Shown piece by piece: positions 40,932-51,022 of a DNA stretch of 51,022 nt. Source of the DNA: Puniceicoccales bacterium. GTDB taxonomy: Bacteria; Verrucomicrobiota; Verrucomicrobiia; Opitutales; JAIRLG01. The notes under the pieces were generated by a model that was not told the DNA's origin, searched no databases, and saw only the letters and a list, made by a program, of their open reading frames with translations. The position numbers and the translations under genes are program-made. Numbering within the stretch: position 1 is the stretch's first letter; each line of letters begins with the position of its first letter. The stretch spans positions 1 through 51,022 of the forward strand of contig JAITIW010000029.1 in the NCBI GenBank assembly GCA_031279255.1, read 5' to 3'.

Positions 40932-41324
40932 ATGGAGAGCTCTCAGCGGGAGTTTTTGTTATTGCTGGGCTATTTATACACTCGCTATGCGAAGTATGAT
41001 GAGGCTTTACTGTTCTTTCGTGGACTGAAAGAATATCTTCCAAATGATCCTGAAATCACCATTGCGCTGGCTCATGCCTACTTTAAGACAGAACGCATTC
41101 CGGAAGCCCACGATACTCTCCAGACATTGGAATTAACGCCGCTTCCAAAGAAACAGGAAAAATTTTTCTTCCTCCTACAGAGCCGTATCCTCTGGGCACT
41201 GGGTCGCGATATAGCGGCCCGCGACGCCCTCATTCATTTCTTAGGTCTTGAAGAGCGCGAGTTACGCCTTCATGGATACCGCAAGCAGTGGGCAATTTCT
41301 AAAAAGGAAGGACAGACAGCATGA
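40932..41324 (+). CDS. Small TPR-like protein, candidate SctY (YscY/Pcr4-like) chaperone
   Basis: 130 aa, all-helical, TPR-like (LGYLYTRYAKYDEALLFFRGLKEYLPNDPE; ALAHAYFKTERIPEA). Its stop overlaps the sctV ATG (ATGA), mirroring the yscY-yscV gene order in Ysc-type systems. Confidence 0.5.
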   Translation: MESSQREFLLLLGYLYTRYAKYDEALLFFRGLKEYLPNDPEITIALAHAYFKTERIPEAHDTLQTLELTPLPKKQEKFFFLLQSRILWALGRDIAARDALIHFLGLEERELRLHGYRKQWAISKKEGQTA

Positions 41325-50500: not shown

Positions 50501-51022
50501 CCTGACCCCAATGGCCGATATTTTAGAACCGTCGATGGCGATTTTATTGAGGCAGATACTCTAAAATATTATGATGGCGATAGTGGAGCGCACATAGCAG
50601 ATACTGAAAATCAGTATTTCGAGATATCTGCAGGGAGCCAACAATACGCACTTTTTTCTACAGGAGCTACTTATCTCTGGTTCGAGGGTGAACTGGATCA
50701 ATTACGACTTTGCACTACAAATTCTACCACTGGGACCTACTATTACCGTTATGACACTCATACGGGGCAGATCCAGGAAAGTCCCAACGGTGAACATTGG
50801 ATAGATATCGATTTCACTGAAGTCGCAGCACGTTGGAATGCTGCCGCCAAATACTTCAAAGATGCCATTCGGAAAGAGAGGATTACAGACGCTTTTCGCT
50901 ATGCCGAAAAAAGCATACTGACTCCCCTTTCCGCTGAAGAATTCCAAAATGTGTCGCCTCGACATCCCATCCATCAATTTTTAACGTCTATTCAGCAATA
51001 TCTTGCTACTTCCCTTTATCAA
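44549..51022 (+). CDS. Giant Tyr-rich repeat protein, 3' partial (>2,158 aa; continues right of the window). Absent from the supplied ORF track
   Basis: I translated frame 2 codon by codon from ATG 44549 to nt 51022 (6,474 nt, 2,158 codons) and found no stop. Every track ORF in this span is short and in another frame or antisense. The ATG lies 6 nt after the previous stop. Confidence 0.85.
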   Translation, partial: MDKVNPADYLSGTLGAMAPNLDDPNCPYRNPFNPDKTLEFYECEMVQRPDDPAIPAKPEAVLNPGAIPSAQSLGISDPPPDYKQPVFNPKSTAIHPIFKAPDVPPMPEPRNSLTPDDPEKVLQALPDYTLHTIDSIPTLDDIPPFSGPQYTIGRPEHPQAKAFAWPKIVLSQERIEWLSFRDLDALHHISSVPPTEDVSKKLSEQNIVLKQALLEVLMNPSYAGWREDTRLHEALEQAFRSTAMGIAIDGKSALESEYFKAIFSRLNNGDDGTTKPLPDLDDPAWHVLQFLKTIEGYSQSDLYLRPEWLEQFQALLEADCDVPYTVGNSLLAAALKTVDGTSVISETLGVKDTDDVFHSLTDKVDEIKWSYEDSANPDNLKIYSANHSVTYVEDDEKYIEVPNPRLRYDETGQLQADGTYVLGNDRALHLVSDNLYFKAKRDGFTAINPEERFDYIDQKTPLFVLNRGEFAQVANAIRQYVCKNNVYYTVLGTTDGTSPQYILSDGSNVDASDYELFYRARIGEGDSLSYVYGARLYEWQEETEYILQSQCRANVHYEDYQRWSEESTGFTRTDDILYTKNALGEYTPISDVQKLYIATTVAGTSPNESTTNYLRIEFPGRFYLQDGDKYLYVPDPSLRYTSAGVLSATGTYVRTEEEGYFDPSKLTETQKKRFIQLYDSTYRKDGDTYVVAANGSYVYGQLTSYKYAEVDSGGKLKRYVKHEGNFSSSADDVYKLFSDVMVKGDDDHFYPYNEIYLRGLQSVSCPEEELLVSLENDETGPAFQMVVPSLPQQYTTLTTLAADKTALVTDLQAVETYFQRVKTNLATFTRQVDAFRNADEELEQLTHFYNTEPIDWSDAGHVEGVANQILQQLSGIRGRHGSIWRQYAEFIIETLKTYNPSEDSSIIFLDRCRQIDVALERVSKANGFTDEDGHALLTTHTDFFGKSLAEVFFQCQESARPETEEEFLRLFKLTQALTKEFNDLVVGWEAIDAKRYISQMLVTQRRQLQSAVNKLQALDWVNFRSLVAQKEFFEKATLLEHVFGNYGELSDDLIFSPAEVDMRIVQQSSLPNGSIYYRSVDGTFHPKDSIHAYVNTTYNIVTLSNFATVQRYDGNGRTNDEGLYIKINGQLALLDTYELNTHGGLTPITFFDGNNFAATSRFALNTTYTAYTSGSLDGYDYVVSGSTYYDRTQSGTFYLSTDGGVTKIPLQSLAFYQENPNATTYIRSDSGDYLRTDEGHYVERSEFSSFFEVAASSISTNGQLTRYRLTGDYYTADNSGEFVLIDGIFYRRNASNTVIQGAHYGSSEITRYSLENSYQSAINGPVICVSGEYRNIAGATFYFQPEGSSAFITVEAGANRYELNYTENASGTYVVETKDDGTEVGYLRNEVNLQVYAVQQGGNYVIIEHPEVSYQKSYFPKNSSGSSGEEDLYVADASGILYRHMSNNSFAEKSAVKWYFPNTSGTGYVEAPVDHDSQNSHILKEDTQVYEMEYVSDNTGGAYYKASDDNYYETDNVTAYYVDSDDGNKLFFVEHPEDISSDTVTIQKQYTVSYFLESDTTQSSPIDVSKRYKKNDDDDYKEDNDGTYIKTGTGTSDADFTLLSDLKAYYTNSSGTLTPISDTNFINGSETFTQDFTFNVTYCVRDTVTSGTSTSSSEDVVTVSDISQKYNYTQVLTETQPPADLWNNTDAYYVKIGNAYYLLSNLQEGSLSGNTLTGTADTTDYVHGYCQTTEVDDDFPDTSDVVEYKRGADSVFYVPTSLRRGFEKDSSIIIVETNADNTPKRYTQNHAVSDDGAYIKGNNGRFYTMVGNSFHYGTQEGPTVYLDQRFALSYRYIQSAMGNLIGVAGTENLLKIASEKRGARVGSTWEQITETTKFYERQGGFLEVGSTGAIPANAYIIDTEGLYHLARSCRFYANQEEISSFRPYRKTDTYSTTDNGSYLRKQDGTYFSRAHVLLGAALDYKGIQIEDADTRYNVSGGSGSPDPNGRYFRTVDGDFIEADTLKYYDGDSGAHIADTENQYFEISAGSQQYALFSTGATYLWFEGELDQLRLCTTNSTTGTYYYRYDTHTGQIQESPNGEHWIDIDFTEVAARWNAAAKYFKDAIRKERITDAFRYAEKSILTPLSAEEFQNVSPRHPIHQFLTSIQQYLATSLYQ

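Follow-up and report, generated by a model that had tools for sequence, protein, structure and literature searches.

Contig JAITIW010000029.1 of assembly GCA_031279255.1, from a Puniceicoccales bacterium, is 51,022 nucleotides long and ends in four tightly packed genes around an injectisome export-gate gene. We analyzed the contig at its full length and refer to it as the window. An earlier interpretation, made from the letters without database searches (the sequence-only reading), had placed four plus-strand open reading frames (ORFs) here, joined by an ATGA overlap and by gaps of 3 and 6 nt. We could reproduce all of them:

40932-41324, plus strand: sctY, 130 amino acids (aa), a tetratricopeptide repeat (TPR) chaperone of the Ysc-type SctY class
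41321-43420, plus strand: sctV, 699 aa, the injectisome export-gate protein
43424-44542, plus strand: orf372 (orfX), 372 aa, a clade-specific protein
44549-51022, plus strand: the N-terminal 2,158 codons of a giant gene, with the frame open up to the contig end

The ATG of sctV lies at 41321 and overlaps the TGA of sctY at 41322-41324 (...GCATGAcc). The two following junctions read TAA-ACT-ATG (sctV to orf372) and TAA-GAAGAT-ATG (orf372 to the giant gene). The probability that 2,158 successive codons lack a stop by chance is about (61/64)^2158, or roughly e^-103, so that the 6.5-kb frame cannot be random. The window is an entire contig, and therefore the break in the giant gene stems from the assembly and is not biological; in L081, an independent Logan assembly that contains the same sequence, the frame runs on for another 158 codons to 2,316, still open. 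Between 38 and 51 kb, promoter-like hits (16 vs 21.5 expected from shuffles) and terminator-like hits (12 vs 13.1) are at or below expectation, and a consensus scan of this region found no convincing plus-strand terminator between the four genes.

The sequence-only reading took the four genes for a stand-alone module. This view had to be abandoned after comparison with relatives, in which the locus is the 5′ part of a longer operon. Judged by these relatives, the window appears to contain the first three and a half genes of a conserved seven-gene injectisome operon, cut off by the contig end; we infer the three downstream genes of the window's own genome from relatives only. The relatives were reached by a search with orf372, then by way of the L082 fragment, and then by a HMMER profile search with the first 1,080 residues of the giant, which returned 16 proteins, most of them matching profile positions 1-230 only. 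A word-indexed homology search with the 2,158-aa giant fragment returned only itself, which reflects the sensitivity limit of this search and not an orphan status. The orf372 homologues held by NCBI are labelled as Puniceicoccales metagenome-assembled genomes (MAGs). Neither orf372 nor the giant gave a tblastn match in 80 SctV loci of other phyla. A scan of genome contigs with SctV found no relative above 64% identity and did not pick up the operon-bearing clade; a scan of metagenome contigs, saturated by the generic FHIPEP pattern, reached 58% at best and also missed the clade.

The order sctY-sctV-orfX-giant recurs with tight spacing in seven further contigs from several divergent lineages (L083, L084, L086, L087, L088, L170, and L171). 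Carriers of the operon include assemblies GCA_031284165.1, GCA_031267435.1, and GCA_029059345.1, MAGs with the locus tags LBT57_, LBD54_, and LBG98_, and a 757-kb scaffold of ERZ28635810. In the close relatives it reads cysS, a TPR protein of 130 aa, an SctV of 697 aa, orfX, giant. The closest relatives share the flanking gene cysS, and the distant relatives have other flanks. A 96-kb contig (L086) carries the whole block: SctY (130 aa), SctV (697 aa), OrfX, a giant of 5,034 aa, a chaperone of 181 aa, an SseC-like protein of 370 aa, and a protein of 330 aa, with gaps of 13, 5, and 79 nt after the giant gene and a convergent mnmE thereafter. The chaperone resembles the LcrH/SycD class II type (Pfam TPR_3, 37.4 bits, cut-off 20.7) and also matches the SscA and SscB models weakly. 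The 370-aa protein is the SctE of this operon (SseC, PF04888, 32.8 bits, cut-off 30.2) and has a hydrophobic hairpin at residues 139-188; the 330-aa protein has one moderately hydrophobic stretch and is a candidate SctB. On a 757-kb scaffold with 35% GC (L087), the same block consists of proteins of 125 aa, 700 aa (SctV), 310 aa, 7,571 aa, 163 aa (TPR), 505 aa, and 336 aa. The gaps are 1-18 nt, and the flanks are quite unlike those of L086. The chaperone and both translocator candidates are homologous to their L086 counterparts; the SctE candidate scores only 17.7 bits with SseC, yet is homologous to the L086 protein (E 1e-16). Three further contigs (L088, L170, and L171) show TPR, SctV, a protein of 405-427 aa, and the giant, up to the contig end. 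Because the block is kept while the neighbors change, we describe it as a seven-gene operon. The sequence-only reading had drawn an analogy to Ysc-type loci, where genes for secreted tip or translocator proteins follow sctV; an LcrH/SycD-like chaperone, an SseC-like protein, and a third protein directly after the giant (L086 and L087) strengthen this analogy. As a side observation, a small ORF at 3645-4007 of L088, upstream of sctY, encodes a signal-peptide-like N-terminus followed by terminal GGYYDP(Y/D) repeats.

The first two genes can be assigned with confidence. The window SctY passes the NCBIfam equivalog model NF052415 (T3SS_chap_SctY) with 78.8 bits (cut-off 70, E 3.9e-22), and the L086 orthologue scores 82.9 bits. 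Pfam TPR_19 also matches the window protein, and a sequence and profile search of the PDB with SctY gave nothing informative. Orthologues of 125-130 aa lie directly upstream of sctV in all seven contigs named above, and in the loci of Achromobacter, Bilophila, and others, an SctY-like ORF likewise lies ahead of sctV. SctV scores 903.2 bits with TIGR01399 (SctV; cut-off 692.25) and 760 bits with Pfam FHIPEP, and with 640.9 bits it falls short of the cut-off of the flagellar FlhA model TIGR01398 (772.1). In a neighbor-joining tree of 36 SctV and FlhA proteins, it groups with Chthoniobacterales, Kiritimatiellae, and Lentisphaeria, bacteria of the Planctomycetes–Verrucomicrobia–Chlamydiae (PVC) superphylum. 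The next nearest proteins are those of Desulfovibrionaceae and of proteobacterial systems that also bear SctX or SctY, then those of Chlamydiae, and FlhA is distant. Both calls of the sequence-only reading, an SctY-like TPR protein and an injectisome SctV, are thus borne out. Of the outcomes that would have refuted this reading, grouping of the gate protein with FlhA and a lack of conservation of the downstream genes next to sctV were both contradicted. In the nearest relative by GTDB, a Chthoniobacterales MAG with an SctV 64% identical to that of the window, sctV is followed by ORFs of 162 and 980 aa (L001, 2167-5630); by eye these resemble a chaperone and a glycosyltransferase-type effector, and neither is related to orfX or the giant.

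In Lentisphaeria, RUG11483, and Desulfovibrionaceae, sctV lies inside full clusters with SctW, SycN, SctX, SctY, SctD, SctN, SctC, SctT, and SctU. Because the sctV genes of these PVC and Desulfovibrionaceae relatives belong to full Ysc-like clusters, we assign the system of the window to the Ysc-like type. SctX and SctY are hallmarks of the Ysc family. In Yersinia, the SctX:SctY complex docks on SctV via the C-terminal helix of SctX and is needed for early export, and chlamydial systems operate without SctX and SctY (PMC9163089). With an SctX hidden Markov model (HMM), we found nothing in the six-frame translations of the window or of L081-L089; the same HMM detects SctX in L002, L006, L007, L009, L013, and L014. 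Either sctX is located elsewhere in the genome, or SctY serves another client. Obvious candidates for such a client are OrfX and the conserved N-terminus of the giant.

Could the locus be a remnant, in which the rest of the injectisome has been lost and sctY-sctV is orphaned or non-secretory? In agreement with the sequence-only reading, no SctU, SctR, SctS, SctT, SctN, SctC, SctJ, or SctQ came to light when the 32 non-nested ORFs of the window with 150 aa or more were all scanned against Pfam, and the 35-43 kb around the operon in L086 and L087 contain no other sct core gene either. This would fit a remnant. The conservation of SctV points the other way. Between the window and its close relatives, SctV is 93-95% identical (L083, L084, and L086), compared to 75-78% for SctY, 77% for FabF, 72% for a CesT-like protein, 60-71% for CysS, 57% for Prs, 55-58% for the giant, and 54-59% for OrfX; dN/dS, the ratio of nonsynonymous to synonymous change, is about 0.02 for SctV, and dS is saturated for the other genes. 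Across distant operon-bearing lineages, SctV is still 73-82% identical. SctV is the most conserved protein of the neighborhood, either because constraint is extreme or because lineages exchanged sctV recently; from these comparisons, it appears to be under very strong constraint. Given this strictly conserved gate protein, we favor a working machine over a relic. Intact translocator and chaperone genes after the giant, and frames that are open in every lineage, including those of 15-23 kb, also speak against decay, and Chlamydiae show that dispersed sct loci can function. A remnant is therefore a very improbable explanation.

The protein encoded by orf372 has no Pfam or NCBIfam match, no PDB sequence match of note, no transmembrane (TM)-like segment, and no signal peptide. 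Ten homologues are 54-86% identical; the distant ones measure 310-427 aa and always follow sctV directly. The family shares invariant residues in an N-terminal core (F35, G39, P52, I61, E68, E73, P80, G83, W84, L103, and E117), two conserved helices, and often a C-terminal hydrophobic residue. The conserved helical N-terminal part spans residues 25-120 or so and is followed by a mostly disordered tail that carries conserved helices. An AlphaFold2 (AF2) model from 11 sequences places helices at residues 3-37, 45-74, 94-109, 134-158, and 248-273, connected by low-confidence linkers. Two identities for OrfX were examined and rejected. As SctX, it reached an hhalign probability of 0.1-0.2%, and TIGR02502 did not match orf372; as an SctW gatekeeper (YopN/CopN/LcrE), it gave no TIGR02568 or HrpJ match and 0.2% against a 9-member SctW alignment. 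One homologue (P0003) bears the Joint Genome Institute name "G:T/U-mismatch repair DNA glycosylase", which no family scan supports and which is probably a misannotation. The sole PDB match of the OrfX profile, endonuclease III, is non-significant (E 0.36). OrfX is a candidate regulator, chaperone, or substrate.

The giant protein is complete in two relatives, with 5,034 aa in L086 (P0013) and 7,571 aa in L087 (P0016), and measures at least 5,091 aa (P0019) and at least 5,421 aa (P0026) in other distant lineages. The window fragment is 49-58% identical to, and colinear with, P0013, P0014, and P0015, and by homology the full-length window protein would comprise about 5,000 aa. The sequence-only reading had called a protein of more than 2,158 aa unusually large; the unusual size stands, but the bound was far too low, as the relatives reach about 5,000-7,600 aa. 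Because the frame is open over 15-23 kb in every lineage and the protein diverges at about the pace of housekeeping proteins, we consider the giant a real coding gene. The window portion can be divided as follows:

44549-45058, plus strand: giant aa 1-170, the proline-rich N-terminal signature region (about 170-190 aa), best conserved across all lineages
45740-46867, plus strand: giant aa ~398-773, a first Tyr/Gly/Asp-rich beta-hairpin array (AF2, low confidence)
46889-47677, plus strand: giant aa ~781-1043, a long-helix region (AF2, low confidence), conserved in P0016 and P0021
47774-50698, plus strand: giant aa ~1076-2050, a second, longer beta-hairpin array, delimited by motif positions

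In a 10-member alignment, the N-terminal signature reads NP..Y..G.LGA.AP...P..NPFN...F.E.E...KP...PG..P..SLG...PR...LP.Y.L...W...EWL.F. AF2 predicts no regular structure for residues 1-170, at low confidence, and this region is probably extended; composition, conservation, and a low-confidence AF2 model suggest a helical domain at residues ~170-360. We counted 22 occurrences of the degenerate motif [DNSTEAG]G.[YF][IVLFYR] in the 2,158 aa, compared to 2.9 +/- 1.7 in shuffled sequences. In the second array region of an orthologue, the fraction of Tyr, Phe, and Trp is 0.12-0.14, and that of Gly is up to 0.14. The giants of 5,034 and 7,571 aa are 31% identical at the N-terminus and 28% (568 bits) over the C-terminal 1,400 aa or so, the part beyond the window that is best conserved between the two. 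The length differences fall in the middle, and the ends are conserved. This architecture fits a spacer or fibre-like protein with functional termini.

No family could be assigned to either complete giant: Pfam and NCBIfam gave no match at E values up to 0.1 (5,034 aa) and 0.01 (7,571 aa), and PDB sequences gave none over the whole length. We found no signal peptide, no TM-like segment, and, by self-BLAST, no long internal repeats. Several candidates were tried and dropped, namely an RHS/YD-repeat or other known beta-hairpin repeat protein (no Pfam repeat family matched), an SctP-like needle-length ruler (no T3S4 or ruler family match, and the wrong operon position), and SctX at the giant N-terminus (hhalign probability of 0.4% at most). 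P0013 also contains a conserved Cys/His-rich patch at residues ~2,480-2,600 (...W.SC.CGGG.AKNHSHG.HFHTYGTC...) that could be metal-binding or catalytic.

The operon is surrounded by housekeeping genes, and the window encodes dnaE, dnaB, bamA, mnmG, fabF, prs, cysS, H+-PPase, ABC/Mla transport, and ffh. The upstream neighbor, named cysS in the sequence-only reading, indeed matches TIGR00435 with 452 bits. One more gene of the window may be relevant to secretion:

33825-34322, minus strand: a CesT-family class I chaperone, 165 aa (Pfam PF05932, 25.7 bits, cut-off 22)

This gene stands alone, 6.6 kb upstream of the operon between mnmG and a lipid A acyltransferase gene, and occurs at the same place in L082 (72% identical). 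Its product may be a class I chaperone for OrfX, the giant, or another effector. The adjacent 650-aa ORF at 34416-36368 (minus strand) is an apparent fusion of a lipid A acyltransferase (aa 33-311) and a family-9 glycosyltransferase/heptosyltransferase (aa 492-617), which is conserved in L082 and L086. At the other end of the window, positions 59-1210 (plus strand) encode a 383-aa protein that consists almost wholly of ankyrin repeats (Ank_2, 251 bits). Such repeats are eukaryote-like and characteristic of bacteria that live with a host. A platform protein of type II secretion systems or type IV pili (T2SSF, 172 bits) is encoded at 9139-10455 (plus strand), and a protein of 280 aa that bears a prepilin methylation motif at its N-terminus is encoded at 22129-22971 (plus strand); like the sct genes, such genes for pili or type II secretion lie dispersed between housekeeping genes.

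After establishing the layout of the operon, we turned to the question as to what OrfX and the giant may do. We favor, with some reservation, the view that the locus is a conserved, tightly packed Ysc-like gate and translocator operon of a clade of uncultured Verrucomicrobia-like bacteria, in which OrfX and the giant serve the type III system as dedicated substrates or accessories. For these two proteins, a role as injectisome substrates or accessories seems the likeliest assignment, by a modest measure of confidence, because both fill, by position and in each of the lineages seen, the slot of LcrR/LcrG/LcrV (or SseA/SseB). The operon would then encode, in this order, SctY, SctV, OrfX, the giant, an LcrH/SycD-like chaperone, SctE (SseC-like), and a candidate SctB. 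SctV would form the export gate, and SctY would dock a chaperoned substrate on the cytoplasmic ring of SctV, as YscX:YscY does on YscV. OrfX might be a regulator, a chaperone, or an SctX-like partner. The giant would be exported N-terminus first. Docking or chaperone binding would fall to its conserved proline-rich first ~190 residues, its middle of beta-hairpins and helices, variable in length, would be a spacer, and the conserved ~1,400 residues at its C-terminus would form a functional or anchoring module. It may act at the needle tip or the host interface, before or together with the translocators.

Several observations weigh against this interpretation. We infer secretion of the giant and of OrfX from gene position, and a working machine solely from the constraint on SctV and the translocator genes. 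The chaperone and the two translocator genes after the giant were seen in two relatives only (L086 and L087), and the LcrH-like protein of L086 remains under the cut-off of NCBIfam TIGR02552 (98.3 vs 104.8 bits, E 2.8e-28). Neither the giant nor OrfX matches a tip, filament, gatekeeper, SctX, or effector family in Pfam, NCBIfam, hhalign, or PDB sequence searches. The AF2 models of orf372 (mean pLDDT 51.8, pTM 0.17) and of giant residues 1-1200 (4-sequence alignment, pLDDT 33.9) are too poor for fold comparison. Furthermore, type III secretion signals typically show far less conservation than the N-terminus of the giant, and to our knowledge a substrate of 0.55-0.83 MDa would exceed any known type III substrate.

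Alternatively, the giant might be no type III substrate at all and instead a cytoplasmic or otherwise exported structural protein that shares the operon by co-regulation or chance fixation. No family membership ties the giant to secretion, the conservation of its first ~190 aa is that of a folded or binding module and not of a loose secretion signal, and we know of no precedent for needle export of more than 5,000 residues. On the other hand, the gene is wedged between gate and translocator genes with gaps of 1-23 nt in independent lineages, and neither a Sec signal nor a TM segment nor any other export motif offers the protein a different route. We regard this explanation as improbable.

In a different scenario, the giant is a record-sized effector or toxin translocated into a eukaryotic host cell, with OrfX as its chaperone or as a second effector. 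The absence of a signal peptide and of TM segments in the giant, the operon link to sctV and translocators, the CesT-type effector chaperone gene nearby, and the chaperone-like and 980-aa proteins after sctV in L001 are consistent with this idea, and the ankyrin-repeat protein hints at a host-associated lifestyle. However, effector genes are usually patchy, whereas the giant keeps its exact slot where SctV differs by 18-27% and the flanks differ. In addition, neither the giant of 5,034 aa nor that of 7,571 aa revealed a domain of enzymatic or eukaryote-like type. An effector function is conceivable but rather doubtful.

Within the favored reading of a substrate or accessory, a more specific proposal is that the giant is a tip or host-contact component that replaces the needle-tip or filament protein. 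By positional analogy, the giant gene, immediately upstream of the class II chaperone, sctE, and candidate sctB (L086 and L087), occupies the position of the tip protein gene (sctA). Neither complete giant has a sequence match to the SctA tip or filament families LcrV, IpaD/SipD, EspA, or SseB. Under this proposal, a single polypeptide of 0.55-0.83 MDa would pass through the injectisome, with SctY and/or OrfX docked on SctV as guides, and would form a very long host-contact structure at the distal end, which would serve as the platform for assembly of the SctE/SctB pore. We consider a replacement of this kind unlikely.

Our literature searches on this operon, on its accessions, and on a T3SS in Puniceicoccales yielded nothing. 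Type III secretion operons belong to the most thoroughly charted bacterial machines, and their tip, ruler, and translocator genes are small and recognizable. The parts of the machine described here are of known kinds; new is the joining of SctY-SctV to a translocator operon, without SctX and away from other sct genes. OrfX and the giant represent two undescribed protein families, and the giant is among the largest bacterial proteins. Here, a Ysc-like gate and translocator operon with two unfamiliar genes in the tip slot is maintained by bacteria that do not belong to the classical pathogens. If the giant is exported, it would raise the known size limit of type III substrates and provide a natural test case for how gate and chaperones handle extreme cargo; if it replaces the tip, it would surpass all known type III substrates in size by a wide margin and represent a new way of connecting bacterium and host. 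Should OrfX or the giant N-terminus replace SctX, this would show how the SctX-SctY-SctV checkpoint can be rewired. In addition, the locus shows that injectisome genes are dispersed in Verrucomicrobia-like bacteria, an arrangement hitherto tied to Chlamydiae, and points to an unrecognized host-interacting lifestyle of these uncultured bacteria.

Comparison with known systems places the operon as follows. Lymphostatin (LifA/Efa1, ~3,200 aa) and chlamydial cytotoxins are also very large proteins without a Sec signal, and their T3SS dependence is reported or suspected. They differ from the giant in that they contain glycosyltransferase or protease domains and are not encoded between sctV and translocator genes, and the giant is 1.6-2.4 times longer. 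Chlamydiae likewise belong to the PVC superphylum and have their sct genes scattered among housekeeping genes, in dispersed loci such as cdsU-cdsV-copN-scc1 and scc2-copB-copD. The chlamydial loci in our set (L010, L011, and L017) read sctU-sctV-sctW followed by a CesT-type chaperone gene. In these, sctV comes after sctU and before the gatekeeper, whereas here the following orfX is not a detectable SctW; the window SctV is only 49-50% identical to chlamydial SctV.

The translocon operons of Salmonella pathogenicity island 2 (SPI-2; sseA-sseB-sscA-sseC-sseD) and of the locus of enterocyte effacement (LEE; espA-espD-espB) resemble our operon in the order helical chaperone, secreted tip or filament protein, class II chaperone, SctE, SctB. 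Neither contains sctV, which is present in the operon here, and the giant has no similarity to SseB or EspA, proteins of ~190-200 aa that polymerise. In the Ysc operons of Yersinia (yscX-yscY-yscV/lcrD-lcrR and lcrG-lcrV-lcrH-yopB-yopD) and Pseudomonas (pcrD-pcrR-pcrG-pcrV-pcrH-popB-popD), as in ours, SctY comes just before SctV, a class II TPR chaperone, SctE, and SctB (in ours an LcrH/SycD-like protein, an SseC-like protein, and a candidate SctB) follow downstream, and the genes are tightly packed. The Ysc operons also share the slot for a regulator, a chaperone, and a secreted tip protein between SctV and the translocator chaperone. The operon described here differs in that SctX is absent from the locus and that the surroundings are housekeeping genes and not a T3SS island or plasmid. 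LcrR, LcrG, and LcrV are replaced by an unrelated protein of 310-427 aa and an unrelated protein of 5,000-7,600 aa.

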